Position numbers and translations under genes: made by a program
Notes under the pieces: model-generated
What the model saw: only the letters and a program-made list of their open reading frames with translations
Databases searched by the model: none
Told to the model about the DNA's origin: nothing
Source: a virus
Lineage: Duplodnaviria; Heunggongvirae; Uroviricota; Caudoviricetes
Strand: one strand, 5' to 3'
Virus record (IMG/VR): IMGVR_UViG_2718218453_000001
Coordinates: 1-53,871 of that record
DNA length: 53,871 bases
In this document: in pieces, positions 12,290 through 28,695 of the stretch
Numbering within the stretch: position 1 is the stretch's first letter
Layout: each line of letters opens with the position of its first letter

Positions 12290-12450
12290 GTATGAGTGCA
12301 TATCTATAGCGCATGAAAACGCATGAGTCTCATGCGCCATTTTTGACGCGAAAGCCCTTGTGTGGTGGCTTCTGAGACGATTTACGGGGTGCATGAAAAC
12401 CAGTCTGTTAAGCGAAGCGGGCAGGCGGGCGGGGCAGCGCACGCTGTGTA
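12290..12450. other. cos-like region of satellite (putative cohesive-end site)
   Basis: Homologous block-by-block to 28535-28695 of the prophage (gtgcatatctatagcgcatga, ggtgcatgaaaacca, aagcgggcaggcg); GGCGGGCGGGGCAGCGCAC at 12424-12442 resembles the P2/186 19-nt cohesive end as recalled. Confidence 0.5.
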
Positions 12451-12639
12451 TGGTCAAAGTAACTTTTAACTTTCAATGAGTACCTGATTGAAAGAATCGT
12501 TTATCACGTTAAAGCGATAACAATGATTTTAAGCAGCGAGTGTGGTGTAAGTATCATTGTCGAGTAAAAATGTTGCAAGCTATTGAAATAAGTATATATT
12601 GCAAATGATGAGGAAAATAAAATATGCAAGGACCTACTC

Positions 12640-13038
12640 ATGGATGCACTGCATGTCGCGCTTGAAAATCTGATTAGAGATGATGGTCAAACACTAAATA
12701 GTTATTTTAGTGAAGTTAAAGTTAATTCATTGATTGAAAATACAAATGCAACTTGTCATTTTCATTGCCTTAATCTTGATGGCAATGGACGTCCTCGGGT
12801 AGACGCGTTAATCCAATTCTTGAACGATAAAGTAGTTGATTATGCTATTCCAAGGAAAAAAATCAATGAGGCAGTGCAATATTTTAATGAAACACAATCA
12901 ACAGCGAAAATAACAAAATTAGCAAATCAAGCAAAAAATTATTTACTAGGCTTGCAAATAGTGGCGAAGGCGGTGAATTTATTCTTTTTTTATTTGCAGA
13001 GCAATTCCTTAGATTTCCACAAATTATTTGCAAAATGA
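12640..13038 (+). CDS. Hachiman HamA-like protein, N-terminal part (possibly one gene with next ORF)
   Basis: AT-rich 132-aa ORF; ends in ATGA overlap with the next ORF; a T7 homopolymer at 12985-12991 lies where the two frames are both open. Confidence 0.45.
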   Translation: MDALHVALENLIRDDGQTLNSYFSEVKVNSLIENTNATCHFHCLNLDGNGRPRVDALIQFLNDKVVDYAIPRKKINEAVQYFNETQSTAKITKLANQAKNYLLGLQIVAKAVNLFFFYLQSNSLDFHKLFAK

Positions 13039-13580
13039 GCCTGAAAACGAGTTCTCAAATGCATTACCATGGTGCAGATGGAATACATATAGGCGTAGAT
13101 AAAGATAATAAAAAATTATGTTTATACTGGGGCGAGTCTAAACTCTATTCCAATCTGAGCAAAGGTATTTCTGAGTGTATGGATAGTATAGCTCCATTAC
13201 TTCAAAGTTCTATGGGAATAGAAGGCGCTGAGACACGTGATATGCAGTTGCTGGAGTCGCACTTAAATGTTGATGATATAGAACTAGAACAAGCGTTGAA
13301 AAGATTCTTAGATCCTGATAGCCCGGATTTTAATAAATTGGAATACAGAGGAATATGCTTAGTTGGGTTTGATCTTAAAGATTATCCACAAGGGCCCAGT
13401 TCAATTGATATCAGTGAACTAGTTGCTTTGATTAATACTAAAGTCGGGAAATGGTCAACTAGTGTGCAAGGTGGTATAGTTAATAAAAAACTTGATCGCT
13501 TTGCTATGCATGTTTTTATTCTTCCTTTTCCTTCAGTAAAAGCATTTAGGGCTAGTTTAATTAAAGCATTGGAGAGTTGA
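13035..13580 (+). CDS. Putative PD-(D/E)xK-type nuclease module (HamA-like, C-terminal part)
   Basis: 181 aa; motif GVDKD...LCLYWGESK resembles a D...ExK nuclease core; stop 2 nt before the helicase ATG. Confidence 0.5.
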   Translation: MSLKTSSQMHYHGADGIHIGVDKDNKKLCLYWGESKLYSNLSKGISECMDSIAPLLQSSMGIEGAETRDMQLLESHLNVDDIELEQALKRFLDPDSPDFNKLEYRGICLVGFDLKDYPQGPSSIDISELVALINTKVGKWSTSVQGGIVNKKLDRFAMHVFILPFPSVKAFRASLIKALES

Positions 13581-13581
13581 A

Positions 13582-16164
13582 ATGTCGTTGCGAGATTTAT
13601 CTGGGTGGTTGATTAAGAATCAAGGATTCTTAAGAAAATATCAGGCATTAGTCGCTAACTCGATAAAAGATCAATTTCCAGAGTTAAAATCAGATGTAAT
13701 CCCACAGATTAGTTCTGAGGATGTCGGCTATCTTTTAACATGTGCTAGTTCTTTGGCTTTCTCAAGTGATGAGAAATGCCAAGATGCAGCCTTAAGGATT
13801 GCACAGTATTGCTTATTGAATGAAAAAAGTGAAGCAAGAAAAGATAGTGCTGCATTAATTCTTGATTCATTATCTAATAATCCAGCAATACAACTTGCTG
13901 AAAATAGGGGGTATCTTAACCCTGATTTCGAAGAAAGATTACCCTTAAAGGCTCAGTTAGAACTAACTAAAAGAAAAATTCTATATACAATTGAAATAGA
14001 TGCTGATAAGCATATTTATGCTAATAGGTTTCAATCAGAGTTTTGGGATGCGGTACAAGAAAACTCATGGGTTAGTGTCTCTGCTCCTACCTCTGTAGGA
14101 AAATCATTTATCCTGGAATCTTGGGTGGAGCAGTTTGTAAAAAGAAATAAGAATTGCTTAGTTATTTATATCGTACCAACAAGGGCATTGATTTCAGAAG
14201 TATATTCTGAGTTGCAAAAACGTTTGGATCCTAATTTAACAAATATAGTTAATATTCAGACACTACCATTGAGTAATGTATACCAGAGCGAAAAATCTAA
14301 TGTCTTCATATTTACACAGGAAAGATTAAATTTATTCTACAATCATTTCTCACAAATTCCAAAGATAGACGTCTTAGTTGTTGATGAAGCACACAAGATC
14401 GGTGATGGTGGAAGAGGTGTTATTCTTCAACATGTAATTGAACTGACTTGTCTAAATAACCCTGATTCAAAAGTTATCTTTGCAAGTCCTTTCACCTTAA
14501 ATCCTGAAATATTGCTCAGTGATGCTCCAATATTAAAAAACAAAAGAACTATAAAAAGTGACTATGTTACAGTTAATCAAAATTTAATATGGGTAGAACA
14601 AAAACCACGCAAGACCAAAGATTGGTTGATGTATTATTTTGCAAACGGTGAAAAACGCGAGTTAGGAAACTTTTCTTTAGAAAATGCACCATCTCCTGAA
14701 AGTAAAAGATTGCCTTTTGTAGCTCTTTGTTTAGGTAAGGGGGCTTCTGGTAACGTAGTTTACGTAAATGGAGCCGCTGAAGCAGAATCTACTTCCAAGC
14801 TAATATCTGCAAGTATAGAAAATGAGACTGAGGATGAAGAAATTTTAGCTCTCGTTGAGCTTAGTGAGACAATTATACATAAAAATTTCGCATTAAATCG
14901 CACTCTAAAAAAGAGAGTCGCTTTTCATTATGGCAACATGCCTTTAATAATAAAGGGCGAGATTGAACGATTGTTTAGTAAAGGTAAGATTGATTTTTTA
15001 ATTTGTACCTCAACTTTAGTTGAGGGCGTAAACATGGCTTGTAAAAATATTTTTATAAGAGGCCCTAAAAAGGGTAATTCAACCCCGATGCGAGAAGAGG
15101 ATTTTTGGAATCTTGCTGGCAGAGCTGGTCGTTGGGGAAAAGAATTCCAAGGTAATGTCATCTGCATCGATAGCGACAATGAAAAAATTTGGAATGGAGA
15201 GCCTCCAAAAACCAAAAAAAATATATTTATAACTCGCGCCACGGATGCTATTTCCCATGACATGGATAAGTTGGTTTCCTATATTTTTTCAGAGCATCAT
15301 TTTGGTATGTCTGAGCGGAATCCTAATCTCCAGAGTCTATTTAGTTATTTATGTTCATCATTTTATTTTTATAATGGCTTGGATAATAATCCTTACATGG
15401 AAAAGTACAATATAAAAAATATCGATGTTTTAAATGAAGCAATATTTGATGTTTTTGATTCTTTAACTTTTCCACACGAATTGGTTGTGCGGCATCCTGG
15501 TATAAGCCCGCTTTTAATGCAAAACCTTTGGGATAGATTTTCGCGGGATACAAACAAACCTGTAGAGAGATTACTGCTTTCTGAACCTGGTAGTAATGAT
15601 GCGTTAGATTCATATGTATCCGCATTCTCTAGAATTAGTGATACTCTGAGTAAGAAGCTAGGTTATAATTCAAAAGGAGCTTACGTACAGGCCTTGTTAG
15701 TTTCCAAGTGGATGAAAGGTTATCCCCTAGCAAGATTGATCTCGGATAGAATAAGATATAACAAAAAGAAAAATATTGTTTTCAAAGAAGCGACTTTAAT
15801 ACGAGGGGTTATGAAGGATGTTGAAGAGATCGCTCGCTATCAAGCTCCAAGGCTTTTAGGATGTTATAATGATTTATTAAAAAGCTTTTATCTTTCGATA
15901 GATCGCACAGACTTAGCAAAAGATGTTGAAGATATCGGTGTTTATTTAGAACTGGGTGTAAGTTTAAAAACTCAGATTTCACTAATAGGGCTTGGCTTTT
16001 CAAGAACTGCTGCTGTAATGATTTCAGAGCTTATTCCTAATGATAGTTTAGATGAGGAAGAATGCATTAATTGGATTAAGGACAATAAAGTTGACATGGA
16101 AGAACTGCCACAATTAGTTCAAAACGAAATACATAATATATTTCGTAACTTTTGGGTACAATAG
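13582..16164 (+). CDS. SF2 (Ski2/Lhr-like) helicase, Hachiman HamB-like
   Basis: Walker A APTSVGKS, motif II VVDEAH, motif VI NLAGRAGRWG, C-terminal RecA-like block FHYGNMP...ICTSTLVEGVNMACKNIFI; 860 aa, AT-rich. Confidence 0.8.
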   Translation: MSLRDLSGWLIKNQGFLRKYQALVANSIKDQFPELKSDVIPQISSEDVGYLLTCASSLAFSSDEKCQDAALRIAQYCLLNEKSEARKDSAALILDSLSNNPAIQLAENRGYLNPDFEERLPLKAQLELTKRKILYTIEIDADKHIYANRFQSEFWDAVQENSWVSVSAPTSVGKSFILESWVEQFVKRNKNCLVIYIVPTRALISEVYSELQKRLDPNLTNIVNIQTLPLSNVYQSEKSNVFIFTQERLNLFYNHFSQIPKIDVLVVDEAHKIGDGGRGVILQHVIELTCLNNPDSKVIFASPFTLNPEILLSDAPILKNKRTIKSDYVTVNQNLIWVEQKPRKTKDWLMYYFANGEKRELGNFSLENAPSPESKRLPFVALCLGKGASGNVVYVNGAAEAESTSKLISASIENETEDEEILALVELSETIIHKNFALNRTLKKRVAFHYGNMPLIIKGEIERLFSKGKIDFLICTSTLVEGVNMACKNIFIRGPKKGNSTPMREEDFWNLAGRAGRWGKEFQGNVICIDSDNEKIWNGEPPKTKKNIFITRATDAISHDMDKLVSYIFSEHHFGMSERNPNLQSLFSYLCSSFYFYNGLDNNPYMEKYNIKNIDVLNEAIFDVFDSLTFPHELVVRHPGISPLLMQNLWDRFSRDTNKPVERLLLSEPGSNDALDSYVSAFSRISDTLSKKLGYNSKGAYVQALLVSKWMKGYPLARLISDRIRYNKKKNIVFKEATLIRGVMKDVEEIARYQAPRLLGCYNDLLKSFYLSIDRTDLAKDVEDIGVYLELGVSLKTQISLIGLGFSRTAAVMISELIPNDSLDEEECINWIKDNKVDMEELPQLVQNEIHNIFRNFWVQ

Positions 16165-16196
16165 TCTTATTTAGACGATTTTTTAAACAATCAATA

Positions 16197-16245
16197 GAGA
16201 AGTTTTTGAATTTTATCATTCTTCCAGTAACAAAAACTTCTCTTT
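16197..16245. terminator. Bidirectional hairpin between convergent genes
   Basis: Perfect 13-bp inverted repeat AGAGAAGTTTTTG / CAAAAACTTCTCT. Confidence 0.5.
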
Positions 16246-16256
16246 TATAACACCGC

Positions 16257-16715
16257 TCAGGCTATTCCAGAATAGGCTTTGCTTACTTCACTATGCCTTG
16301 TGCCGCAATGCCTCAAAATAACAAGGCCATGTTGCAGTAACGCCTCACTACGTTCAGGTTCAAACCATTTCCCGTTAAATTTTCCTCCGTGAAAAAGATT
16401 GTTTCTTACACGGCGGATTAACAAAAAAAGAAATTTTGCTAAATCTTTTTCTTGTGGTAAAGAATCATCCCAAACTAAAGAGTCATCTTCTATGATTTGT
16501 TTTTTGGGTGGGTGTTCTTTAAAGTAGGTGATAGCAGCAATTAGCTCTGGATCAGTTGTGTTATTTATGATTTCAGAAACTTGCTTTGCATACTCATCCC
16601 AGTTCGCTTTAGCATCTTTTATTTTATGATGAAGTCCACATGCCTTAAGGCAATATTCATAACGTGAAAACTCTCTAAAGAATTCATAACATAAATTATC
16701 TAGATTATTCTCCAT
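16257..16715 (-). CDS. HEPN-motif protein (putative RNase-type abortive-infection or toxin component)
   Basis: 152 aa, AT-rich; R-x4-H motif RNNLFH near C-terminus; GGAGAT RBS; downstream of and co-directional with int. Confidence 0.55.
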   Translation of the reverse strand: MENNLDNLCYEFFREFSRYEYCLKACGLHHKIKDAKANWDEYAKQVSEIINNTTDPELIAAITYFKEHPPKKQIIEDDSLVWDDSLPQEKDLAKFLFLLIRRVRNNLFHGGKFNGKWFEPERSEALLQHGLVILRHCGTRHSEVSKAYSGIA

Positions 16716-16744
16716 GAACTATATCTCCATGTATAACAAGTTAA

Positions 16745-17944
16745 CTAATATTGATTGCGCTCGTACACTTTTTGGCCCCACCAATTCATAAGTCCTATTC
16801 GTTGCTCAAGGTAAGTTGAACGATTATATGCTCTGCGCACTTCATTTTTATCACTATGTGCAAGAGCAGCCTCAATTACATCTGCATTAAAACCCGCTTC
16901 ATTTAATGCGGTGCTGGCAATTGAACGCAATCCATGAGCAACCAATCTACCACCAAATCCAATCCTTTTTAAAGCAGCATTTGCCGTCTGGCTATTCATT
17001 GGTTGCTTTGGGTCATTCCGACTCGGGAAAACATGTTCACGATGGGCACTGATTAGCTTCATCACATCAAGAATCTCTAATGCCTGAGGAGATAGAGGGA
17101 CTATGTGTTCCCGCTTAGCCTTCATTCGTTCAGCTGGGATAGTCCAGAGCTTTGCATCGAGATCGAGCTCAGCCCACCTAGCACCGGAAGCCTCAGAAGG
17201 ACGAACTAGAGTCAGGAGTTGCCACTCAATGAGGCAGCGAGTCGGAACAGACAAATTTGACATGACGAGAGAACGCATCAGCATAGGCAATTCTTCTGGG
17301 CGCAACGTAGGCATATTTTGTTTTTTTGGCTTCTCAAAGGCCATTCCAATGCCTGATGCTGGATTGGCATCAATAAGACCAGTATTTACGGCATAAATCA
17401 TTATCTCGTTAACACGCTGCACCAACCGGCGCACCGTCTCCAGCGCCCCACGAGCTTTGATCGGTTCAAGGGCTTCAACCAGTGTTCGGGCTTTGATTTG
17501 CTGGACAGGGATCTCCCCGATGGTGGGGAATACGTCTTTTTCCAGTGAACGCCATATATCTTTAGCGTAATCATGGGTAACGCTTTTGCTTTTGAGCTGG
17601 AACCAGTTAGCGGCGACCGTCGAAAAAATACTGTCCAGAGCGATTTGCTGCTGTTCCTCTGCAACTTCAGCTTGAATTTGCGGGTCGATTCCGTTGGCTA
17701 ATAGGGCAAGGTAATCTGCTCTTAACCCTCGGGCATCAGCAAGAGAAAGGGCAGGAAAAGCACCAAGTCCCATCATAGTCCGCTGTTTTGTTGCTGGGCG
17801 TTGATAGCGAAAGCGCCAGAGTTTCTTGCCGCTAGTTTTCACTATCAGGAAAAGCCCATCGCCATCATGCAGCGTTAGATCCTTCTCTAACGCTTTCGCG
17901 CGCAGAACTTCGGTGTTGGTCAGGGGGCGTGTTGTCCGTGCCAC
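16745..17944 (-). CDS. int: P4-type tyrosine integrase
   Basis: 399 aa; N-terminal MARTTRPLTNTEVLRAKA...DGDGLFL typical of P4/CP4-57 IntA-like integrases; adjacent to ssrA core copy. First codon is GTG. Confidence 0.9.
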   Translation of the reverse strand: MARTTRPLTNTEVLRAKALEKDLTLHDGDGLFLIVKTSGKKLWRFRYQRPATKQRTMMGLGAFPALSLADARGLRADYLALLANGIDPQIQAEVAEEQQQIALDSIFSTVAANWFQLKSKSVTHDYAKDIWRSLEKDVFPTIGEIPVQQIKARTLVEALEPIKARGALETVRRLVQRVNEIMIYAVNTGLIDANPASGIGMAFEKPKKQNMPTLRPEELPMLMRSLVMSNLSVPTRCLIEWQLLTLVRPSEASGARWAELDLDAKLWTIPAERMKAKREHIVPLSPQALEILDVMKLISAHREHVFPSRNDPKQPMNSQTANAALKRIGFGGRLVAHGLRSIASTALNEAGFNADVIEAALAHSDKNEVRRAYNRSTYLEQRIGLMNWWGQKVYERNQY

Positions 17945-17967
17945 TGTGGCCGCTCCTTCATGAATTG

Positions 17968-18014
17968 GTATACGCTTTTAGGTATACATCCTACCGTATA
18001 CCGAAACGTATACC
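17968..18014. promoter_or_regulatory. Four GTATAC(C) direct repeats (candidate integrase arm-type sites)
   Basis: GTATAC at 17968, 17982, 17996, 18008 with 12-14 bp spacing between int and att. Confidence 0.45.
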
Positions 18015-18060
18015 AATAATCATCGGATTTAGCCGGATGTTCTCGGACAACGACAAACAC

Positions 18061-18095
18061 AAAAAAGCCCGCAGGGCTTGTGCCATGCGGGCTTT
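18061..18095 (-). terminator. Rho-independent terminator following the ssrA 3' copy
   Basis: Minus-strand hairpin agcccgca...tgcgggct followed by TTTTTT. Confidence 0.55.
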
Positions 18096-18128
18096 CTGTA
18101 CTTCACCGGACGTATCCGGATCATTATT

Positions 18129-18173
18129 TGGTGGAGCTGGCGGGAGTTGAACCCGCGTCCGAAATTCCTACAT
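18129..18173 (-). repeat. 45-bp direct repeat of ssrA 3' end (att core)
   Basis: TGGTGGAGCTGGCGGGAGTTGAACCCGCGTCCGAAATTCCTACAT identical to 52812-52856. Confidence 0.9.
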
Positions 18174-18258
18174 ACTATCTTAACTATAACAAAAACAATG
18201 ATTTGCTTTTTAAAACAGTAGGTTGGTATTACTCGGTGTTTGTTCATTTTACTCGTTT

Positions 18259-19212
18259 TTAATGCTCTGCCGCCAAAGTGCCGCCAGTCTTTCTTGAATC
18301 TTCTAATGCTTCATGATCTTTAATTAGTACCTTCAACGAGTTAATTACTTTAATTTGGCATTCCTTAATTAAGTCAGGTAATTTTTCATCAATCTTTGTT
18401 TCTTTTGAATAGAATAAAGTTCTGTTAATGCAATTTTCCAGTCCTCCACTCTCATTCAAATCGGGGAATAGTACAAATCTCCCAAATGCAATGCCATTTT
18501 CCACTTCAACATATACCTTTGGGTGCTCATCTATATAACCGTGGTGAATTATATGATTTCGTAATGATGTTACAGTGTTTATAAAATTGCTATTTTCAAA
18601 TATGGTATCCGTTGTTGTCGAAAAAACTAATTCTTTATAGTTGCCGTATAATTTATTTTTGGATATTAATTTCTTGTATTTAGAGATTGGGAAGTTACTC
18701 TTTAATAATTCAAAGGAGATTTTAGTAACGTAGTCAAACAAACTATTCATTTTTATAAATAGCATGCTTAACAAAGAAAATAGCAAGCTTGTTTTTGGCG
18801 ATTTTGCTACTAAAATCCCTTTAAAATCTTTGTCTGGTGTGGTTATTAACAAATCGCTCCAGAGTATTTCATAAAATTGTTGCGCTATAACAGAGAGTTC
18901 CAAACTACACTCTGTTATATATGAAATTAAGACTTCACAGTCTTGGATGTAAAGAATGTTTGAATCAAAAAATTGCGTTAATTTATTAAAAGTGTTTTTG
19001 CAAACTTGAGATTCCGAGTTATGACCAACATCTCTGATAGTGTAAATGTTAGATTCTTCGGCGATGGAAATCCTTTCTTTTATTTTATCGAAAATTGCAT
19101 ACAGGGCTATACTTAGATTTTCGATTTCATATTGTTCGTTTGTATAGATGATGTTATTCATCAGATCACTTCCTATTTCTATAATGGAGTTAGAGGTTTT
19201 TTGTAACTGCAT
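18259..19212 (-). CDS. Hypothetical protein, partner of RES-like gene (cargo)
   Basis: 317 aa, strongly AT-rich, ATG with AAGAGG RBS, 33 nt downstream of the RES-like gene. Confidence 0.65.
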   Translation of the reverse strand: MQLQKTSNSIIEIGSDLMNNIIYTNEQYEIENLSIALYAIFDKIKERISIAEESNIYTIRDVGHNSESQVCKNTFNKLTQFFDSNILYIQDCEVLISYITECSLELSVIAQQFYEILWSDLLITTPDKDFKGILVAKSPKTSLLFSLLSMLFIKMNSLFDYVTKISFELLKSNFPISKYKKLISKNKLYGNYKELVFSTTTDTIFENSNFINTVTSLRNHIIHHGYIDEHPKVYVEVENGIAFGRFVLFPDLNESGGLENCINRTLFYSKETKIDEKLPDLIKECQIKVINSLKVLIKDHEALEDSRKTGGTLAAEH

Positions 19213-19245
19213 CCTCTTAATACTCTACCGCCAAAACGCCGCCAC

Positions 19246-20457
19246 TTAAGGCTCAAGATAATCATGCTTCATCATTTTATGAATTAACAATTGAACTTTT
19301 TTGAATGAGGTATTATTGTAATATTCCACTAGCGATTCATCAAAATCTTCAATTGTACCTGATGCTGGAGTTGGTCCTCCCATTATGAGTCTATCTTCAT
19401 CCATACCATCGGTCTTGACGTTTAAAGTGCTAAATACTTGCCATGAAACAGGTTTGGTAAATTTAAATATATTTAGTAAGTGTGGGCAGTAATCATAACC
19501 AGAATCCAAAATATTATCCATTTTAGGTGGCATGATTATATTAATACCAATATCACTATCTTTTTGATTGAGAATTTTAGTCGTGCGATAAGCGATACCG
19601 GCTATGCCCTTATTTTCATTGCTGCTGAGCCATTGCATAAGAAGGTTGGGGATTATGTACTCAGGGTTGAAACTAGAGTTTTTATGTTGTTTTGTATAAT
19701 TACAGGCTAACACAAGTGGCCAGGAAATTAAGTTCGAAATGACCCTATTCATAGTTCCTTCAGTATCATTATCTAACAGCCATGCTAAGGTGTTTATGTT
19801 CAATGCTGATCTCAAATTATAACCAAGGTTAAGTATTCTATGTGATGAACCAGACTCTGTGATGAATGAAGATACATATAATTTATCAAAGTCTGGTTTT
19901 TCCATTTCTTGCCAACATACAAAAATAGAGGTTCCTAAATATAAACAAGGAAGGCCTGAGACTGAGTATCTTTGTGCATTCACAAGATAACGTTTAGAAA
20001 AAGGAATATGAAAGATATCACGCCTTTCTTTTATTATTTGATCGCTTTTTCTTACGCGAAATAGAGGTTTTCCAGGATGACAAAACACACTTAATGGAAC
20101 GGACATATTATAGATGTGGTCATTTATATTTGTCTTGGTGATAGCGTGATCAAATGTTAGGTAAGATTCTTTGATTTTACCGTTTAAATATAATCTAAGT
20201 GTTTCTGAAATTTTATCCGAGAGTGTTTTTGTGCTTTTTATTTTTGATTTTATTTCACGAATTACAAGGTTGTGAGGGTTTTTACTGTAAATCTTGTTTA
20301 TGACTTCTAGGTAACATTTAACCCTATTGTTAAAATCTTTAATGATATTATTTCCCGCGAGATAAGGAGCTTGTAATAGTGGTTTGGACTCTATTTCGAA
20401 TAATATTTCATTAAGCATTGCTACATAATCTGTGGTACTAATTTTATTAATTTTCAT
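19246..20457 (-). CDS. RES-domain-like protein (cargo)
   Basis: 403 aa, AT-rich; segment QRYSVSGLPCLYLGTSIFVCWQEM resembles the RES-domain core (Arg ... Glu); starts 4 nt after int stop. Confidence 0.65.
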   Translation of the reverse strand: MKINKISTTDYVAMLNEILFEIESKPLLQAPYLAGNNIIKDFNNRVKCYLEVINKIYSKNPHNLVIREIKSKIKSTKTLSDKISETLRLYLNGKIKESYLTFDHAITKTNINDHIYNMSVPLSVFCHPGKPLFRVRKSDQIIKERRDIFHIPFSKRYLVNAQRYSVSGLPCLYLGTSIFVCWQEMEKPDFDKLYVSSFITESGSSHRILNLGYNLRSALNINTLAWLLDNDTEGTMNRVISNLISWPLVLACNYTKQHKNSSFNPEYIIPNLLMQWLSSNENKGIAGIAYRTTKILNQKDSDIGINIIMPPKMDNILDSGYDYCPHLLNIFKFTKPVSWQVFSTLNVKTDGMDEDRLIMGGPTPASGTIEDFDESLVEYYNNTSFKKVQLLIHKMMKHDYLEP

Positions 20458-20461: not shown

Positions 20462-21481
20462 TTAAATCGCTAGTGATGATAAAGGGTTTTTTGTTACAGC
20501 ATCTTCAAGATGCTCAGGTGAAAAATGAGAATAGACCATAGTCATTTTTATATCTGAATGGCCTAAAATATCTCTTAGTACAAGAATATTCCCTCCATTC
20601 ATCATAAAGTAACTGGCGAATGTATGGCGCAAGACGTGGGTACATTGTCCCTCTGGCAAGTCGATACCAGCTCGTTTAACTGCACGCTCAAAAGCTTTTC
20701 TGCATGGGGTGAATAACTTCCCTCTGTTCTTGGGGAGTTCGTCATACAGATCCTGAGATATCGGCACGGTACGGTTTTTCTTGCCCTTCGTCTTGGTATA
20801 AGTGATGCGGTATTTTGATAACTGATGGCCCTGCAGGTTTTCTGCTTCACTCCACCGCGCACCAGTAGCTAGGCATATTTTTGCAATCATCAGCAGGCTG
20901 GGGCTTTGAGAATCCGCGCAGGCATCCAGCAGGCGTTTAATTTCTTCTGGGGTCAGGAATGCCAGTTCACCCTCTGCGATTTTGAATGTTGGCAGACCGG
21001 CGAGCGGGTTAGGGGCTGACCAGTGGCCCAGTTTTTTCAGAGTCCCAAAAACTGATGATAGGTTGCGTTGTTCGAGGTTTACCGTTCGGGGCTTAACTGG
21101 CGACATAAGCGCGCCATCTTCATTTCGCACTTCACCTTTTAATCGCGCTTCACGGTATTTCGTAAAATCTCCGGCGGTCAGCTCTGAGGCGATAGGGTCG
21201 CCCAGGCCATTACAGATAATTCTAAGTTTCGCCATCAGGCGTTTGGGGTCTGCGAGCGTCTGCCCGTATAGTGAGTGCCATTGCTCTATCACTTCTGACA
21301 GATGCCGCCGATCTTCCTTTTCCCCCAGCCATGGTTTTTTGTTTACTTCATCCATGGTGAAGTTTTCGAATGCTACGGCTTCGCCTTTCGTCGCAAATTG
21401 CTTGCGCACGCGCTTGCCGTCCCGCCCGTTAGGGTAGCACTCACACAACCATTTTCCGTTCGGCTGTTTACTGATGGTCAT
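20462..21481 (-). CDS. int: P2/186-type tyrosine integrase
   Basis: 339 aa; C-terminal HVLRHTFAS...ILGHSDIKMTMVYSH catalytic motifs; position next to the repressor gene. Confidence 0.9.
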   Translation of the reverse strand: MTISKQPNGKWLCECYPNGRDGKRVRKQFATKGEAVAFENFTMDEVNKKPWLGEKEDRRHLSEVIEQWHSLYGQTLADPKRLMAKLRIICNGLGDPIASELTAGDFTKYREARLKGEVRNEDGALMSPVKPRTVNLEQRNLSSVFGTLKKLGHWSAPNPLAGLPTFKIAEGELAFLTPEEIKRLLDACADSQSPSLLMIAKICLATGARWSEAENLQGHQLSKYRITYTKTKGKKNRTVPISQDLYDELPKNRGKLFTPCRKAFERAVKRAGIDLPEGQCTHVLRHTFASYFMMNGGNILVLRDILGHSDIKMTMVYSHFSPEHLEDAVTKNPLSSLAI

Positions 21482-21483: not shown

Positions 21484-22116
21484 CTAAATACTCTTGATTA
21501 CTTTAATGGCTCGCCCGACAACTTCCACATCATCAACAGAACACTCAAAGGATGAGTCGTCCTGGTGAACAACAATTCTGTTGCCTGGTATTCGGGCAAT
21601 CTTGACGATGCTTTTCACCCCATCAATATCGACAAGCCAGTAACCATTGCTAACCTGTTTGACAGATATATCCACTACAAAGCAGTCAGTAGACGTTTTT
21701 ATAAACAATGAATTGCCGGGCTCACTGTCCAGTAAGCTGCTATCAAGCAAGACTTCCCCTTCGTTATTCAACTCCCCATTCTTCAATTCGGCTTGCTTAA
21801 TGCTGGGGGCAACGATTTTGGAAAGTGGTCGAAGCGTGACGTTTGACTCGTTTACGGGATTTTTTTCTCGATCTTCTGAAGTGAACATTTCACCCTGGCC
21901 TGTGGCTAGCCATAGCAGCGAAACCCCTGTTTCAAGTGCACACTGGATGACCCACTCAGCAGGAAAGCTATCTCGTAAGTTTCTGTTTGCCATAGTGCTT
22001 TTTGAAATTTTTAAATGGTCAGCTAGTGCTTGTTTGGTGCTGAATCCATATGCCTTAAGCAATCTTTCGATCGCCTCTCTACCTCCCGTATTGGGACCTG
22101 CCTGAATGTTGATCAT
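21484..22116 (-). CDS. cI: 186 CI-like immunity repressor
   Basis: Divergent from the apl-cII operon, adjacent to int; HTH-like N-terminus; start chosen at second ATG with GGAG RBS. Confidence 0.7.
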   Translation of the reverse strand: MINIQAGPNTGGREAIERLLKAYGFSTKQALADHLKISKSTMANRNLRDSFPAEWVIQCALETGVSLLWLATGQGEMFTSEDREKNPVNESNVTLRPLSKIVAPSIKQAELKNGELNNEGEVLLDSSLLDSEPGNSLFIKTSTDCFVVDISVKQVSNGYWLVDIDGVKSIVKIARIPGNRIVVHQDDSSFECSVDDVEVVGRAIKVIKSI

Positions 22117-22235
22117 CAAATACTCCATTGACGACCACTTAAAGTGATCGTAGTATCGCGATTATCCCGCAAGGGGAATCCTGAAAAGTGAGCTAAAACG
22201 AGATAAAACTAACTTAAATCTAAGGATACTGCACT

Positions 22236-22478: not shown

Positions 22479-22510
22479 CTTCAATTATGGGAACTTTCTA
22501 AGGGAGCACC

Positions 22511-23020: not shown

Positions 23021-23027
23021 GGTGCTT

Positions 23028-23658: not shown

Positions 23659-23739
23659 TGATGATTCCTTCTAGCTATCAATATGTTGGTAATGGATCAT
23701 ATCAAAAATTTTTTAGTAGATGTGTTGTGGGATGCATAA

Positions 23740-24081
23740 ATGGCTATTGAAGGCACTGCGGCGACTGTTCCATTAAGCCCCGGTGAACGCCTGAATGGAC
23801 TTAATCACATTGCGGAGTTAAGGGCGAAAGTTTTTGGCCTGAATATTGAGTCAGAGCTTGAGCGGTTTATTAAAGATATGCGTGATTCACGGGATATTAA
23901 TAGCGAACAAAATAAACGGGCACTGGCTGCCATATTCTTTATGGCAAAAATTCCAGCTGAACGTCATAGCATCAGCATTAATGAGCTGACCACTGACGAA
24001 AAGCGGGAGTTGATTAAAGCAATGAATCATTTTCGTGCAGTGGTGAGCTTATTTCCCAGACGGCTAACCATGCCGAATTAA
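23740..24081 (+). CDS. Hypothetical early protein
   Basis: 113-aa ORF in early operon. Confidence 0.55.
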   Translation: MAIEGTAATVPLSPGERLNGLNHIAELRAKVFGLNIESELERFIKDMRDSRDINSEQNKRALAAIFFMAKIPAERHSISINELTTDEKRELIKAMNHFRAVVSLFPRRLTMPN

Positions 24082-24148
24082 CCAACTAATGAAATTAATG
24101 GCGTAAACCCGCCGGGCATCCCTTTATCTAAATTCAGGAGAATTGATT

Positions 24149-24382
24149 ATGCGTAATATTGAAACCCTCACGACTAAAACCGGACCGGATGATGCAGGTC
24201 TTAATCTTTTACTGACAGAGGCCCGTCTTGAAGAACGTCGGGCAAGGGCTGAGGCAATGGCTGCCCGCCTTGATAGCCTGGCGTGTCATATCACATCCCG
24301 CCAGTTAAACCACGTCGAAGCGGCAGAACTGCTGCGTGTGACTGCTGAAGCAATCCAGAACGAAGCGCAGGAGATCCACTGA
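24149..24382 (+). CDS. Small early protein (DUF2732-like)
   Basis: ATG at 24149 with AGGAG RBS; small helical protein at the P2 orf80-83 position. Confidence 0.55.
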   Translation: MRNIETLTTKTGPDDAGLNLLLTEARLEERRARAEAMAARLDSLACHITSRQLNHVEAAELLRVTAEAIQNEAQEIH

Positions 24383-24609
24383 TGGCTGATGCAATGGATC
24401 TCGTACAGCAGCGAGTTGAAGAAGAACGCCAACGTCATATCCGTGCTGCCCGTGCCAAAACACCGGGCGTGTCCCGCGTGCTTTGCGTTGAGTGTGAAGC
24501 GCCAATTCCGCCAGCACGCCGTCGTGCCATTCCGGGTGTGCAGCTTTGCATTACCTGTCAGGAAATCGCAGAGCTGAAAGGCAAACATTACAACGGAGGT
24601 GCTGTATGA
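24382..24609 (+). CDS. TraR/DksA-family C4 zinc-finger protein
   Basis: CVECEAPIPPARRRAIPGVQLCITCQ four-cysteine motif. Confidence 0.75.
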   Translation: MADAMDLVQQRVEEERQRHIRAARAKTPGVSRVLCVECEAPIPPARRRAIPGVQLCITCQEIAELKGKHYNGGAV

Positions 24610-25463
24610 GCACCATCCTGAAATGGGCGGGAAATAAAACCGCAATTATGTCCGAACTGAAAAAACACCTTCCTGCTGGCCCGCGACTGGTTGAACCTTT
24701 CGCGGGTTCCTGTGCGGTGATGATGGAGACGGATTATCCAAGCTATCTGGTTGCGGATATTAATCCTGATTTAATCAACCTCTATAAAAAGGTTGCCGCT
24801 GATTGTGAATCGTTTATATCTCGCGCCAGAGTTTTATTTGAGATCGCAAACAGGGAGGTAGCTTATTACAACATAAGGCAGGAGTTTAATTACTCAACTG
24901 AAATTACTGATTTCATGAAAGCGGTATATTTCCTGTATCTCAATCGTCACGGTTACCGTGGTTTATGTCGCTATAACAAGAGCGGGCATTTCAACATTCC
25001 CTACGGTAATTATAAAAATCCGTATTTATCTGAAAAAGAAATTCGCGCATTTGCAGAAAAAGCCCAGCGGGCAACGTTTATCTGCGCCAGCTTTGATGAA
25101 ACGCTGGCGATGTTGAAGGCGGGGGATGTGGTGTATTGCGATCCGCCGTATGACGGTACGTTTTCCGGCTATCACACTGATGGTTTCACTGAAGATGACC
25201 AGTATCACCTGGCATCCGTTCTTGAACATCGAGCATCTGAAGGACATCCGGTCATTGTTTCTAACAGTGACACATCCCTGATCCGTTCGCTGTATCGCAA
25301 TTTTACTCACCACTACATCAAGGCAAAACGCAGCATCGGCGTAGCAGCTGGTGAGAGTAAATCTGCAACAGAAATCATCGCTGTTTCCGGGGCGCGCTGC
25401 TGGGTGGGATTTGATCCTTTGCGTGGCGTGGATAGTTCTGCCGTGAACGGAGTGCGTGCATGA
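24606..25463 (+). CDS. DNA adenine methyltransferase (Dam-like, orphan)
   Basis: N-terminal KWAGNK...EPFAGSCAV and catalytic DPPY motif; no adjacent restriction gene. Confidence 0.85.
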
Positions 25464-27874
25464 GCCATGCTGATATGAACAACTGCAGCGGCTTTAACGA
25501 GGCCGCCGCAGCATTCTCATGGAACAGCCCGAAAAAGGCCATTAACCCTTATCTGGACCCGGCGGAAGTCGCGCCGGTTTCTGCGCTTTCAAACCTGATC
25601 ACTCTGTACGCTGCCGATAACGAGCAGGAACAGCTGCGCCGCGAGGCACTGAGTGCTCAGGTCTGGGAGCGTTATTTCTTTAATGAATCCCGTGATCCTG
25701 TCCAACGCGAAATGGAGCAGGATAAGCTCATTAGCTGGGCAAAGCTGGCGCATGAGCAGCAGCGTTTTAATCCAGACATGGTCATTCTGGCGGACGTTAA
25801 CGCCCAGCCTTCCCATATCAGCAAGCCGCTGATGCAACGTATTGAATACTTCAGCAGCCTGGGCAGGCCAAAGGCTTATTCCCGCTATTTGCGTGAGACG
25901 ATTAAGCCATGTCTGGAACGGCTGGAGCATGTACGCGACAGTCAGCTATCCACTTCTTTTCGCTTTATGGCAAGCCATGAAGGGCTGGATGGCCTGCTGA
26001 TTCTGCCTGAAATGAGTCAGGATCAGGTGAAACGCCTGTCCACCTTGGTAGCTGCGCATATGAGCATGTGCCTTGATGCTGCTTGTGGCGATTTGTATGC
26101 CACCGATGATGTTAAGCCAGAAGAAATCCGCAAGACATGGGAAAAGGTGGCAGCAGAAACCCTGCGACTGGATGTCATACCGCCTGCGTTTGAGCAACTC
26201 CGCCGGAAAAGAAACCGCCGTAAACCCGTGCCCTATGAACTCATTCCGGGGTCGCTGGCGCGTATGCTGTGCGCCGACTGGTGGTATCGGAAATTGTGGA
26301 AGATGCGTTGCGAATGGCGGGAAGAGCAGTTGCGTGCTGTTTGCCTGGTCAGCAAAAAAGCATCTCCCTATGTCAGCTATGAAGCCGTGATGCATAAACG
26401 TGAGCAGCGCCGCAAGTCACTGGAGTTTTTCCGTTCTCATGAACTGGTGAACGAAGACGGCGACACGCTGGACATGGAGGATGTGGTAAACGCCAGCAGC
26501 AGCAACCCTGCGCATCGCCGCAATGAGATGATGGCCTGTGTTAAAGGTCTGGAGCTTATCGCGGAAATGCGCGGTGACTGCGCCGTTTTCTACACCATCA
26601 CCTGTCCGTCACGTTTCCATTCCACGCTAAATAACGGCAGGCCCAACCCGACCTGGACAAATGCGACGGTAAGACAAAGCAGTGATTATCTGGTCGGCAT
26701 GTTTGCTGCATTTCGTAAGGCGATGCACAAAGCCGGATTGCGCTGGTATGGCGTGCGGGTGGCTGAGCCGCATCATGACGGTACAGTTCACTGGCATCTG
26801 TTGTGTTTTATGCGCAAAAAAGATCGCCGCACCATTACTGCTTTGTTGCGTAAGTTTGCCATTCGTGAAGACCGCGAGGAGCTGGGTAATAACACGGGAC
26901 CACGCTTTAAGTCTGAGCTGATAAACCCGCGCAAAGGTACGCCAACAAGCTACATCGCGAAATACATCAGTAAGAACATTGACGGGCGTGGTCTGGCTGG
27001 CGAGATCAGCAAGGAAACGGGTAAATCCCTGCGTGATAACGCTGAATACGTTAATGCCTGGGCGTCTCTGCATCGTGTTCAGCAATTCCGCTTCTTTGGC
27101 ATTCCGGGGCGTCAGGCTTACCGTGAACTGCGATTGCTGGCTGGTCAGGCGGCAAGGCAACAGGGGGACAAAAAAGCAGGTGCGCCGGTACTGGATAACC
27201 CGCGCCTTGATGCAATCCTGGCTGCTGCTGATGCTGGTTGTTTTGCCACCTACATCATGAAGCAGGGCGGCGTACTGGTTCCCCGCAAATATCACCTCAT
27301 CAGAACTGCTTATGAAATCAACGAAGAACCGACCGCCTATGGCGATCACGGTATTCGTATTTATGGCATCTGGTCACCCATTGCAGAGGGCAAGATCTGC
27401 ACTCATGCGGTGAAGTGGAAAATGGTTCGTAAGGCCGTTGACGTTCAGGAGGCGGCAGCCGACCAGGGCGCTTGCGCCCCTTGGACTCGTGACAATAACT
27501 GTCCCCTTGCTGAAAATTTGAACCAACAGGAGAAAGATAAATCAGCTGATGGGGACACCAGAACGGACATTACCCGCATGGATGACAAAGAATTGCACGA
27601 TTACCTGCACAGTATGAGCAAAAAAGAACGCCGGGAACTGGCAGCGAGGTTACTCCTGGTTAAACCGAAACGGCGTGAAGACTACAAACAGCGAATTACA
27701 GACCATCAGCGACAGCAGCTCGTGTATGAGCTGAAGTCCAGAGGATTTGATGGTAGCGAGAAAGAGGTCGATTTACTCCTTCGCGGCGGCAGTATTCCGT
27801 CAGGAGCAGGCCTGCGTATCTTCTATCGGAACCAGCGTTTGCAGGAAGATGATAAGTGGCGAAACCTGTATTAA
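25460..27874 (+). CDS. A: Replication initiation endonuclease gpA (rolling-circle)
   Basis: 804 aa; active-site tyrosine pair in YIAKYISK; position and size as P2/186 A. Confidence 0.9.
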
Positions 27875-27965
27875 TTACGCTGGTTAACAATTCGTGCTCT
27901 TAATAATACCAGGCATATCAGGCTGATAAGCGTAAAAAAACGTTTTACATCAGTAAGATTATTAT

Positions 27966-27985
27966 ATACTGTAAATATAAACAGT
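27966..27985 (+). promoter_or_regulatory. LexA box (SOS operator)
   Basis: TACTGTAAATATAAACAGTG fits CTGT-N8-ACAG (core 27968-27983), upstream of the small ORF and DinI-like gene. Confidence 0.6.
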
Positions 27986-28027
27986 GGTTATACATACAGT
28001 ATTGCGTGTGGTGTCATAGGAGGAAAG

Positions 28028-28216
28028 ATGCAGGACTATTTTTTGGAGTCTTTGAAGCTCCAGCGCATTGATTTTTTTCTTAAGCTTGTAGCGGCTAGTG
28101 AGTGTAGTGATGAAGAGAAGGGGCTGGCTTTGCAGTGGGTTTCTGAACTAACAGATGAACTCATGGCAAAAATCAGAACCCACGAATACAACCGCTCAAT
28201 GGATGTCATCAGCTGA
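28028..28216 (+). CDS. Hypothetical small protein
   Basis: 62-aa ORF downstream of the LexA box. Confidence 0.4.
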   Translation: MQDYFLESLKLQRIDFFLKLVAASECSDEEKGLALQWVSELTDELMAKIRTHEYNRSMDVIS

Positions 28217-28226
28217 GGTGACTTTT

Positions 28227-28460
28227 ATGCGCATTGAAATAATGATCGATAAAGAGCAGAAGATTAGCCAGTCTACACTGGACGCCCTTGAATCCGAGCT
28301 TTACCGCAATCTGCGCCCCCTGTATCCCAAAACGGTAATTCGTATCCGCAAAGGTAGCTCTAACGGTGTGGAACTGACCGGACTGCAACTGGACGAAGAA
28401 AGAAAACAAGTGATGAAAATTATGCAGAAGGTGTGGGAAGACGACAGCTGGCTGCATTAA
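28227..28460 (+). CDS. DinI-family protein
   Basis: MRIEIMIDKEQKISQSTLDALESELYRNLRPLYPKTVIRIRKGSSNGVELTG... DinI-like; GAGGTG RBS; LexA box upstream. Confidence 0.8.
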   Translation: MRIEIMIDKEQKISQSTLDALESELYRNLRPLYPKTVIRIRKGSSNGVELTGLQLDEERKQVMKIMQKVWEDDSWLH

Positions 28461-28534
28461 GAAACGTTGCTGGCGTCTGAACTTGCTTCTGGCGTCAGCA
28501 AGGTTGAACAACGAGCTGTGCGAGGCGTTAGCTC

Positions 28535-28695
28535 TGTGGTGCATGTCTATGCCGCATGAGATCGCATGATCGTTTGAGGATCGTTTTTGCTAAGGCCTGC
28601 CAGAACTGGCGGGCTTTTGCGTAGATCATGCAGGTGCATGAAAACCACTACATAAAGCGGGCAGGCGTGGCGGGGATACGAGCGCGCGCAAGGTA
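28535..28695. other. cos-like region of prophage (putative cohesive-end site)
   Basis: GGCGTGGCGGGGATACGAG at 28664-28682 shares its first 13 nt with the 186 cohesive end as recalled; surrounding about 150 bp homologous to satellite 12290-12450. Confidence 0.5.

Follow-up and report, generated by a model that had tools for sequence, protein, structure and literature searches.

Two regions of about 150 bp in the window (the whole 53,871-nt stretch of DNA analysed here) are very probably cos (cohesive-end packaging) sites, one belonging to a P4-like satellite and the other to a Fels-2/186-like prophage of the P2 family; the two elements lie in tandem at ssrA. This reading is based on computed evidence, namely sequence homology, the spacing of short boxes, genomic position, conservation in hundreds of genomes and the turnover of cargo at fixed borders. 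The finding is real but ordinary, and belongs to known biology: a shared P2/P4 cos core and adjacent defence hotspots.

The window comes from E. coli strain 4012, and both elements occupy the 3' end of its ssrA gene. We classed an element as a P4-like satellite if it has int, psu, delta, sid, alpha and ash together with a CI/C4 immunity RNA and lacks structural genes. The satellite in the window encodes a Pox_D5/Toprim primase, Phage_ASH, Psu (two genes), Ogr_Delta and an integrase (Pfam), as well as the C4 and isrK RNAs (Rfam). From left to right it carries the sid-like gene, psu, delta, cos, cargo and int; the order sid-psu-delta differs from that of P4, which has sid-delta-psu. The prophage has the hallmarks of P2-like phages (Peduoviridae), i.e., a Q-to-L capsid/terminase operon, a gpA replicase, an integrase and Ogr. 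Its gpP is 63-64% identical to gpP of P2 and 186, and its gpM shares 42% identity with P2 gpM. The main features of the two elements are as follows.

5600-18123, forward strand: P4-like satellite (Pfam, Rfam; left end approximate, right end adjoining the ssrA 3' repeat)
6020-8404, reverse strand: satellite alpha primase
8912-9463, reverse strand: satellite Ash
9158-9245, reverse strand: satellite C4/CI RNA (Rfam)
9314-9391, reverse strand: satellite isrK (Rfam)
10604-11389: satellite sid-like gene
11386-11940: satellite psu
about 11942-12214: satellite delta
16745-17944, reverse strand: satellite int
18124-18176, forward strand: displaced copy of the ssrA 3' end (53-nt direct repeat) beside the satellite int, the prophage attL
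18177-52806, forward strand: Fels-2/186-like (P2 family) prophage (Pfam; RefSeq annotation of strain 4012; ssrA repeat at both ends)
20462-21481, reverse strand: prophage int
21484-22128, reverse strand: prophage CI (186-type)
24546-25463: prophage Dam
25460-27874: prophage gpA
28227-28460: prophage DinI/Tum-like gene
30794-31819, reverse strand: prophage portal Q
31819-33585, reverse strand: prophage terminase gpP (Terminase_5/6N/6C, Pfam)
35640-36290: prophage gpM (Phage_term_smal, Pfam)
51916-52179: prophage ogr

The 53-nt direct repeat at 18124-18176 is 98% identical to 52807-52859 within ssrA. No repeat of at least 10 bp that could represent a left att copy of the satellite was found near 5,600-6,000. 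A possible integrase arm-site repeat occurs in the satellite at 5775-5797 and 17996-18018, and a degenerate ssrA-like 19-mer lies at 1526-1544. Over 12.8 kb the satellite is present at 100% identity in 6 E. coli genomes, and it reaches at least 99% coverage in 17. Fels-2 sits at ssrA in Salmonella, and tandem islands have reportedly been described at the tmRNA gene by Williams 2003; the arrangement seen here resembles them in that an element with a P4-type integrase and a Fels-2-like prophage share ssrA, with duplication of its 3' end. It differs in pairing a satellite with a potential helper; their cos sites have the same orientation and are separated by 16.24 kb.

The initial annotation had proposed that about 150 bp of each element are homologous block by block, and alignment of 12290-12450 with 28535-28695 bears this out. 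The Smith-Waterman score of the pair is 46, against 15.9 +/- 2.4 (maximum 31) for 2000 shuffles (z = 12.5), and the similarity resolves into two collinear blocks on the same strand, one distal (12296-12326 and 28539-28569) and one in the core (12388-12434 and 28633-28675). The distal block has the form GCAT-N9-GCATGA-N3-CGCATGA, which occurs exactly twice in the window where 0 occurrences are expected by chance. Comparison of the whole satellite with the whole prophage by blastn at word size 7 returned these two blocks as the top matches, with all others at chance level; it revealed no DNA homology beyond the cos regions and no second tract on the far side of either cargo. The longest exact identities between the two regions are 15 bp and 13 bp. 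MAFFT misaligned the 3' end of the raw pair, and local alignment together with ungapped comparison of the cores was more informative. A blastn search of the satellite region against 50,697 phage records gave nothing at E <= 1e-5 because what the region shares with P2, P4 and 186 is too short and blocky; the reference P2, 186 and P4 genomes were aligned at their circular junctions instead.

The cos sites of P2, 186 and P4 have 19-nt 5' cohesive ends, according to Wang et al. 1973 and Ziermann and Calendar 1990 as cited in PMC9594776 and PMC9122126, and a conserved 55-bp cos is the only homology between P2 and P4 (PMC9594776; PMC9122126). Alignment to these references supports the earlier suggestion that the two regions are cos-like, with a match in sequence, spacing and genomic position. 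The cos features are the following.

12290-12444, forward strand: satellite cos region with a variant ('type B') core, aligned to the prophage, P2, 186 and P4
12298-12326, forward strand: satellite distal GCAT-box cluster (GCAT at -126, -113 and -103 from the assumed nick)
12390-12444, forward strand: satellite 55-bp cos core, TGCATGAAAACCAGTCTGTTAAGCGAAGCGGGCAGGCGGGCGGGGCAGCGCACGC
12424-12442, forward strand: satellite candidate 19-nt cohesive end in register 1, GGCGGGCGGGGCAGCGCAC, anchored on the GGCG motif
12419-12437: satellite candidate 19-nt cohesive end in register 2, GGGCAGGCGGGCGGGGCAG, anchored on the flanking boxes
28535-28689, forward strand: prophage cos region, with a 'type A' core as in P2, 186 and P4
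28541-28569, forward strand: prophage distal GCAT-box cluster (GCAT at -123, -110 and -100)
28635-28689, forward strand: prophage 55-bp cos core, TGCATGAAAACCACTACATAAAGCGGGCAGGCGTGGCGGGGATACGAGCGCGCGC
28664-28682, forward strand: prophage candidate 19-nt cohesive end, GGCGTGGCGGGGATACGAG, extrapolated from the match to 186

In both sites, three GCAT boxes stand some 100-125 bp to the left of the nick and are followed by a T-tract and a 55-bp core (TGCATGAAAACC ... GGCG.GGCGGGG ... CGCGCGC). Common to them and to P2, 186 and P4 is the frame TGCAT(T/G)AAAACC ... AAGCGGGC(G/A), directly followed by GGCG.GGCGGGG ... (C/T)GCGCGC. GCAT boxes stand at -122/-123, -110, -100 and -28 in P2, P4, 186 and the prophage, and at -126, -113, -103 and -33 in the satellite; the distal boxes are spaced by 13 and 10 bp in the satellite, the prophage, 186 and P4, and by 12 and 10 bp in P2. 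The upstream flank of GCAT boxes as a family trait is our own description, drawn from five references (P2, P4, 186, the prophage and the satellite). Genomic positions also fit the two families, since the prophage site lies between gpA/DinI and portal Q and the satellite site between sid-psu-delta and int.

For the prophage region, identity to its counterparts in Fels-2, RE2010 and Klebsiella/Escherichia P2-like phages is 94-98%, and the homology stops at 28690-28692. Ungapped identity of the prophage core is 44/55 to 186, 43/55 to P4 and 42/55 to P2, with 0 occurrences of the pattern expected by chance; the cores of P2 and P4 are identical at 52 of the 55 positions. The motif GGCGTGGCGGGG at 28664-28675 is identical to nucleotides 1-12 of the phage 186 cohesive end, and this start of the candidate 19-mer, together with the context immediately to its left (AAAGCGGGCA), matches the mapped 186 end GGCGTGGCGGGGAAAGCAT. 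Over its full length, the prophage 19-mer differs from that of 186 at 5/19 positions.

The satellite core is more divergent, with 36/55 ungapped identity to each of the prophage, P2 and P4 cores and with both end motifs at the same distance. The motif GGCG.GGCGGGG, which the initial annotation had assigned to both elements, is present as such in the prophage, whereas the satellite copy (GGCGGGCGGGG, 12424-12434) is one base shorter. Relative to the P2, 186 and P4 cores, the satellite has a duplication of AAGCG left of the GGCG motif and 5 nt less to the right. A 5-nt offset between the motif and the flanking boxes leaves two possible overhang registers; depending on the register, the satellite 19-mer is identical to the P2 overhang at 13/19 or 12/19 positions, and the 55-bp frame is retained. 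Among 5,426 E. coli genomes, 853 have this type B region (88-100% identity), and the homology stops at 12438-12446. A set of 33 distinct type B sequences from several genera, 32 from satellites and one from the prophage L010, shows near-invariant boxes and a near-invariant TGCATGAAAAC motif, and similarity collapses immediately right of the core. The cos sites are under purifying selection, as seen in their retention across the 853 genomes and in the near-invariant boxes of the 33 sequences, and also in the presence of the prophage-type site in 1,293 genomes.

Terminator-like hairpins overlap both regions (12320-12336 on the forward strand and 28660-28645 on the reverse strand), and both regions directly follow terminators, of delta and of the DinI-like gene, as would be expected if the similarity reflected a shared regulatory element (a terminator or promoter); chance in G-rich DNA could be another source. 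Either origin is extremely improbable given the alignment score (z = 12.5), the 0 chance matches to the box pattern, and a cos region that stays constant while the cargo downstream changes completely. We rejected the terminator/promoter reading because the hairpins are not kept between type A and type B cores and because the sequence and position of the region match the experimentally mapped cos ends of P2, 186 and P4.

If the two regions are cos sites, the functional unit would span about 155 bp, almost wholly left of the cut. It would consist of the three GCAT boxes (13- and 10-bp spacing; about 100-125 bp upstream), the T-tract and the 55-bp core, the latter ordered as TGCATGAAAACC, a spacer, AAGCGGGCA, the G-rich 19-nt cut region and CGC(G/A)CGC. 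The helper terminase (gpM and gpP, both encoded in the window) would bind the GCAT boxes, which are putative cosB-like elements on the basis of their conservation, and would make staggered nicks 19 nt apart, at positions that are predicted in both elements. The satellite, which encodes no terminase, would keep the boxes and spacing of its helper and be packaged by the helper's enzyme, and such a shared packaging constraint would account for otherwise unrelated elements being alike only at cos. Recognition would need nothing right of the core, leaving the right side free to vary and to hold a cos-adjacent accessory/defence hotspot. The cos of phage lambda is organised into cosQ, cosN and cosB, with R sites and an IHF bend. 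The likeness to it is a functional analogy only, without sequence similarity: both have a nicking site, spaced repeats of a short motif on one side, an A/T tract and a two-subunit terminase, but the overhang is 19 nt here and 12 nt in lambda. The repeats here are on the flank that forms the right end of the mature genome, and circular monomers are reportedly the packaging substrate of P2.

The prophage in the window may well be able to package the satellite beside it. The 19-mers of the two elements do differ, as the initial annotation had observed (10/19 identical in either register), and this had led to the suggestion that the prophage might not be the optimal helper. A stronger form of this idea, in which the satellite cos is incompatible or poorly compatible with the neighbour's terminase and the neighbour is not its helper, draws on the core identity of 36/55 compared with 52/55 between P2 and P4, on the 5-nt shift of the GGCG motif, and on the 42% identity of the window gpM to P2 gpM, which means that specificity could differ between phage lineages. 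We consider it rather unlikely. Type B cores are found in satellites of the 853 E. coli genomes and are essentially absent from P2-like phages (0 of 34 IMG/VR loci, 0 of 6 enterobacterial GTDB species representatives and none in the phage collection), and thus the usual helpers of type B satellites must carry a standard core; the difference between the 19-mers stands, but for this reason it says little about which helper is optimal. Only one E. coli prophage with a type B core was found (NZ_CP148268.1), and its terminase is near-identical to that of the window prophage (gpP at 588/588 and gpM at 215/216 positions). Moreover, the satellite retains all box elements and their spacing, and several P2 relatives with different ends, e.g., 186, package P4. 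The O157 Sakai prophage-pool paper contains no packaging data for a satellite with a type B core. The existence of a large satellite class with a non-helper overhang suggests that the terminase may recognise its site by the flanking boxes and their spacing, and not by the 19-mer.

The main use of recognising these regions as cos sites is the correct annotation of the locus. Two small additions could interest builders of P2/P4 cosmid delivery systems and students of helper-satellite specificity: a nearly one-sided cos unit of about 155 bp can be recognised, with three upstream GCAT boxes conserved from P2 to distant satellites, and a large class of satellites has an overhang unlike that of nearly all potential helpers.

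An AT-rich cargo was said to start within about 200 bp of each cos-like region, and this holds: the first cargo genes begin at 12640 and 28830, 198 and 148 bp beyond the respective candidate 19-mers. AT-rich sequence itself begins within about 10 bp of each core, and homology to relatives ends a few bases to the right of it. Moving rightward, G+C falls from about 0.50 to 0.34-0.36 at the satellite site and from about 0.53 to 0.35-0.39 at the prophage site. The cassettes contain the following genes.

12640-16164, forward strand: satellite cargo, Hachiman system (PADLOC; G+C 0.34-0.36)
12640-13580, forward strand: hamA, frameshifted by loss of 1 nt from an A7 run at 12932
13582-16164, forward strand: hamB helicase (PADLOC HamB1, E = 0, full length)
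16257-16715, reverse strand: 152-aa ORF between Hachiman and int, inside the satellite hotspot (phrog_19013)
28830-30708, forward strand: prophage cargo, three-gene cassette (G+C 0.35-0.39)
prophage cargo gene 1: 355-aa protein, with two UniRef relatives named 'ATP-binding protein'
29894-30214: prophage cargo gene 2, 106-aa STAS-like DUF4325 protein (Pfam)
prophage cargo gene 3: protein of about 163 aa (the cassette falls in PHROG families without assigned function)

A Hachiman system comprises HamA (DUF1837) and HamB, both intact; here hamA is frameshifted, and the PADLOC HamA1 profile is split over two ORFs (profile positions 3-133 and 134-312). The deletion could be a sequencing error in a homopolymer. 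In the IMG/VR copies L004-L006, hamA is intact. Pfam, NCBIfam and PADLOC gave no match for the 152-aa ORF. At >=99.9% identity, the Hachiman cassette is present in 19 of the 5,426 E. coli genomes, apparently inside the same satellite every time (17 full-length matches to the satellite were found). The same satellite backbone elsewhere carries a dsDNA nuclease, DUF262 with a methyltransferase, retron St85, an ABC-three-component system or Hachiman. For the prophage cassette there was no PADLOC or NCBIfam match and no functional PHROG assignment. In P2-like phages from five genera the three genes stay together in the interval from cos to the portal gene, and relatives of the cassette (53-87% identity; Klebsiella, Pantoea, Serratia and Enterobacter) always occupy the gpA/DinI-to-portal interval of P2-like phages. 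The prophage-type cos site with its flanks was found in 1,293 genomes, only 19 of which have the same cargo; the others found within these flanks include PIN, HNH, AIPR, retron, TIR and DprA genes. Both elements thus have a cos-adjacent hotspot, that is, conserved flanks enclosing unrelated cassettes across genomes.

Since both hotspots begin a few bp from the core, cos marks one recombination end point in each family, and the initial annotation had proposed that the shared cos-proximal homology is a route by which helper and satellite swap cassettes. As a frequent process, such exchange is largely refuted. No exact match exceeds 15 bp, whereas efficient RecA-dependent exchange in E. coli needs roughly 23-27 bp, there is no second homology tract, and the cargos are confined to their own element type: Hachiman to 19 genomes and apparently one satellite, and the prophage cassette with its relatives to the gpA-Q hotspots of P2-like phages. 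Nor could the ends of the two elements anneal, as the overhangs are identical at 10/19 positions. Some type B satellites (L035, L036, L039 and L049) hold a homologue of the P2-type portal gene in the cos-adjacent hotspot, so that cos-adjacent DNA of a helper can end up beside a satellite cos. In these satellites, however, homology to phages covers the portal gene body only (<=88.9% at the nucleotide level among the top matches) and stops short of cos; the spacer up to cos has no phage homology, which rules them out as direct evidence of cos-anchored recombination. Cos-end recombination and possible P2-P4 exchange were proposed, with a few shared systems mentioned, by Rousset et al. 2022 (PMC9122126), and so the swap idea is not novel; at large scale cos-linked exchange is rare, with a single P2-P4 case in a 2026 survey (Moura de Sousa et al. 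2026, PMC13586616). Overall, we regard it as very unlikely that helper and satellite swap their adjacent cassettes through the cos-proximal homology or through the cos cut.

A different relation between cos and exchange can be imagined for the type B satellites. About 40% of E. coli P4-like satellites, the one in the window among them, would have a satellite-specific core in which the boxes and the 55-bp frame are kept by compensating changes of +5 and -5 nt while the cohesive end is rewritten; if cargo turnover runs via joining of cos ends, a speculation of Rousset et al., an overhang unable to anneal to that of the helper would act as a recombination barrier. We consider this distinctly unlikely. 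If true, it could help to explain the near-absence of P2-P4 exchange while still allowing terminase piracy.

Hotspots of anti-phage genes adjacent to cos have already been described in P2-like and P4-like elements (Rousset et al. 2022, PMC9122126), and Hachiman is listed as a P4-borne system in published surveys (PMC9122126; PMC13586616). The two loci in the window resemble the published hotspots (PMC9122126; Moura de Sousa et al. 2026, PMC13586616) in having AT-rich variable cassettes beside cos; the satellite cassette is flanked by psu/delta and int, the phage cassette by gpA and gpQ. There is no essential difference from them. The prophage cassette matches no known defence family in PADLOC. 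In the window prophage the cargo lies between cos and Q, whereas P2 has old and tin between gpA and cos. The window prophage also has extra cargo sites between int and att and within the tail genes, and these likewise appear in the published hotspot lists (PMC9122126; PMC13586616).

The window matches E. coli strain 4012 (NZ_CP103626.1) at 100% identity and carries a satellite and its potential helper in tandem at ssrA, with cos-like sites 16.24 kb apart in identical orientation. The elements are as follows:

roughly 5,600-18,123, P4-like satellite directly left of the displaced ssrA end (P4-type integrase, alpha primase, Ash, sid, psu, delta, C4/CI immunity RNA, isrK)
18124-18176, duplicate of the final 53 nt of ssrA (partner copy 52807-52859)
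18177-52806, P2-family prophage of 34.6 kb, bracketed by the ssrA repeat (integrase, 186-type CI, Dam, gpA, DinI/Tum-like protein, portal Q, terminase gpP and gpM, tail genes, Ogr)
52812-53174, minus strand, ssrA (tmRNA gene)

The 53 nt repeated from the 3' end of ssrA show that the prophage integrated between this gene and an already-resident satellite, and the satellite-prophage junction is common to at least six E. coli genomes. The satellite has the gene order sid-psu-delta, whereas P4 has sid-delta-psu. Its immunity region includes a C4 antisense RNA (P4 CI-type immunity RNA; 9158-9245, minus) and isrK (9314-9391, minus), both identified with Rfam and both within the Ash ORF as called (8912-9463). 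A 23-nt repeat (GTATACC.AA.CGTATACCAATA) near both satellite ends (5775-5797 and 17996-18018) may be an integrase arm site, and a degenerate 19-mer resembling the 3' end of ssrA lies at 1526-1544, possibly as the distal boundary of an older island at ssrA.

The initial annotation described the two cos-like stretches as homologous block by block, and this holds. Aligned locally, 12290-12450 and 28535-28695 score 46, against 15.9 +/- 2.4 (maximum 31) in 2000 shuffles (z = 12.5). The similarity lies in two collinear, same-strand blocks. The distal block, GCAT-N9-GCATGA-N3-CGCATGA, occupies 12298-12326 in the satellite and 28541-28569 in the prophage, and its pattern occurs in the window at only these two sites (0 expected by chance). 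The core block pairs satellite positions 12388-12434 with prophage positions 28633-28675. When the complete satellite was compared with the complete prophage by blastn (word size 7), the distal and core blocks were the two best matches, and no other similarity exceeded the chance level. Immediately right of both sites, G+C falls from ~0.5 to ~0.35.

The likeness to P2-type cohesive ends was likewise borne out when both regions and their relatives were aligned with the circular cos junctions of P2, 186 and P4, assembled from genome records. All share one architecture, which lies almost wholly left of the cut. In P2, P4, 186 and the prophage, four GCAT boxes stand at -122/-123, -110, -100 and -28; in the satellite they stand at -126, -113, -103 and -33. 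A T-tract separates the distal from the proximal boxes. The proximal part of this architecture is the 55-bp core described as the sole homology between P2 and P4 (PMC9594776; PMC9122126).

Ungapped identity between 55-bp cos cores
P2 and P4: 52/55
prophage and 186: 44/55
prophage and P4: 43/55
satellite and prophage: 36/55

The prophage has the standard core (type A), and its candidate cohesive end is:

28664-28682, candidate 19-mer GGCGTGGCGGGGATACGAG

The mapped end of 186 has the same first 12 nt and left context as this 19-mer, and the region is 94-98% identical in Fels-2, RE2010 and many Klebsiella and Escherichia P2-like phages. Homology to P2-like phages ends at 28690-28692, about 8-10 bp past the 19-mer.

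The satellite has a variant core (type B), in which AAGCG is duplicated left of the GGCG motif and the part right of the motif is 5 nt shorter than in type A. Because these changes compensate, the outer motifs TGCATGAAAACC and CGC(A/G)CGC are still exactly 55 bp apart. Judging from the sequence, the satellite overhang could lie in either of two registers:

12424-12442, candidate overhang GGCGGGCGGGGCAGCGCAC, if the position of the cut follows the GGCG motif
12419-12437, candidate overhang GGGCAGGCGGGCGGGGCAG, if it follows the flanking boxes

Among 5,426 complete E. coli genomes, 853 contain the type B region (88-100% identity, homology stopping at 12438-12446); the P4-type satellite cos region was found in 1,173 genomes, which puts type B at roughly 40% of satellite cos sites in E. 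coli. A search with a degenerate type B pattern retrieved 34 IMG/VR loci and six enterobacterial species representatives (members of Scandinavium, Citrobacter, Pseudocitrobacter, Enterobacter and Pantoea), all of them satellites. In a comparison of 33 different type B sequences, 32 from satellites and one from the prophage L010, almost no variation is seen in the GCAT boxes or in the TGCATGAAAAC motif, the core portion used as the search pattern being invariant by construction, and similarity is gone immediately past the core. One satellite relative (L011; IMG/VR 2923272612_000005) keeps the proximal type B core next to its alpha gene, without the distal GCAT boxes or the sid-psu-delta genes, and is probably a decayed element.

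Both cos-adjacent loci behave as hotspots. The satellite's cargo, right of its core, is a Hachiman system with a full-length HamB, followed by a 152-aa ORF of no assigned function. Its hamA (12640-13580) is frameshifted by contraction of A7 to A6 at 12932, compared with an intact 313-aa hamA in the IMG/VR copies L004-L006; the shift reflects either true inactivation of the gene or a sequencing error in the homopolymer. In sister genomes RefSeq names the gene either HamA C-terminal fragment or DUF1837 protein, thus some copies may be intact. The satellite backbone carries different cassettes in other strains. Right of the prophage core are genes for a 355-aa protein (named 'ATP-binding protein' in a few relatives), a STAS-like DUF4325 protein and a protein of roughly 163 aa, none of which received a defence-family assignment. 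Of the 1,293 genomes with the prophage flanks, only 19 share the window's cargo; other cargos between these flanks include PIN, HNH, AIPR, retron, TIR, DprA and DUF262.

That the shared cos homology lets helper and satellite swap cassettes, as the initial annotation proposed and as Rousset et al. 2022 (PMC9122126) had already put forward, appears very improbable here. The longest exact match between the two cos sites is 15 bp, and blastn of the entire elements found no second homology tract for a double crossover. Efficient RecA-dependent exchange in E. coli needs roughly 23-27 bp, which 15 bp falls below. The overhangs are identical at 10 of 19 positions and so could not anneal to each other. 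Cargos also seem confined by element type. The Hachiman DNA is present in 19 E. coli genomes, every copy at least 99.9% identical, and these together with 17 full-length satellite matches place it apparently always in the same satellite. Relatives of the prophage cassette (53-87% identical; Klebsiella, Pantoea, Serratia, Enterobacter) always lie, as in the window, in the interval from gpA/DinI to the portal gene of P2-like phages; a type A cos stands about 100-130 bp upstream in all four loci read (L054, L056, L059, L061). Exchange is favoured by an intact-looking P2-type portal homologue in the type B satellites L035, L036 and L039 (IMG/VR) and L049 (Pantoea stewartii ATCC 8199, NZ_CP046558.1), and probably also L045. 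This gpQ homologue sits in the cos-adjacent hotspot, oriented as in phages; it matches Pfam Phage_portal, is 86% identical in amino acids to the window's Q over residues 21-340, and is near full-length with a differing N-terminus. However, its homology to phages covers the gene body only (up to 88.9% nucleotide identity among the top matches) and stops short of cos. The P4 papers searched make no mention of satellite-borne portal genes.

The two cores do differ, as had been noted of their candidate 19-mers, but it does not follow that the prophage is a poor helper: since type B occurs in hundreds of satellites and is nearly absent from P2-like phages, the normal helpers must carry type A cores. 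The sole P2-like prophage found with type B (L010/L042; E. coli Z1323PEC0014, NZ_CP148268.1, 4,018,554-4,018,759) has a terminase nearly identical to the window's (gpP 588/588, gpM 215/216) and a 19-mer matching that of the window's satellite at 17 of 19 positions. Together these points suggest that the terminase reads boxes and spacing rather than the 19-mer, although an argument from a single prophage of uncertain viability is weak alone. In this prophage the type B core could stem from a short patch transfer out of a satellite, and the cargo genes, for a GTPase-domain protein and a hypothetical protein, are left of cos, like old and tin in P2.

The best-supported mechanism is one in which helper gpM/gpP terminase would bind the GCAT boxes and core and nick 19 nt apart, with the satellite mimicking these recognition elements. 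The comparisons show the homology, box spacing, genomic position, conservation and turnover of cargo, from which terminase binding, the nick positions and the prophage's competence as helper are inferred. The cos side without needed recognition sequence would then be free to accept accessory cassettes, which would place the conserved/variable border at the core edge. Between them, Ziermann and Calendar 1990 (as cited in later work), Rousset et al. 2022 and Moura de Sousa et al. 2026 already cover the whole finding. Our modest additions are a one-sided ~155-bp unit with conserved upstream GCAT boxes and a widespread satellite-specific core with compensating indels, neither found described in the papers searched, a set that excludes the original cos paper.

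Additional prophage cargo sites in the window are also covered by earlier literature (PMC13586616). Two AT-rich ORFs of 317 and 403 aa (18259-20457, minus; phrog_31026 and phrog_7835, function-unassigned PHROGs) lie between the integrase and attL, at the 'int-att' position described in PMC13586616 as a minor site of cargo in P2-like phages. An AT-rich gene among the late genes (39651-40451, plus; G+C 0.37), in the position of P2 orf30, encodes a 266-aa protein with an N-terminal TIR domain and weak matches to ThsB, SpbK and PDC-S66, and is likely further defence cargo. Between ogr and attR, inside the prophage att repeats, a 160-aa ORF (52206-52688, minus) matches phrog_2561 ('DNA ligase') and, within models of NAD-dependent ligases, their C-terminal BRCT-like part. 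An AIDA-type autotransporter (2158-5187 and 5216-5542, plus) appears interrupted: the 1009-aa passenger ORF stops at 5187, and a separate ORF of 108 aa encodes the final portion of the beta-barrel domain.
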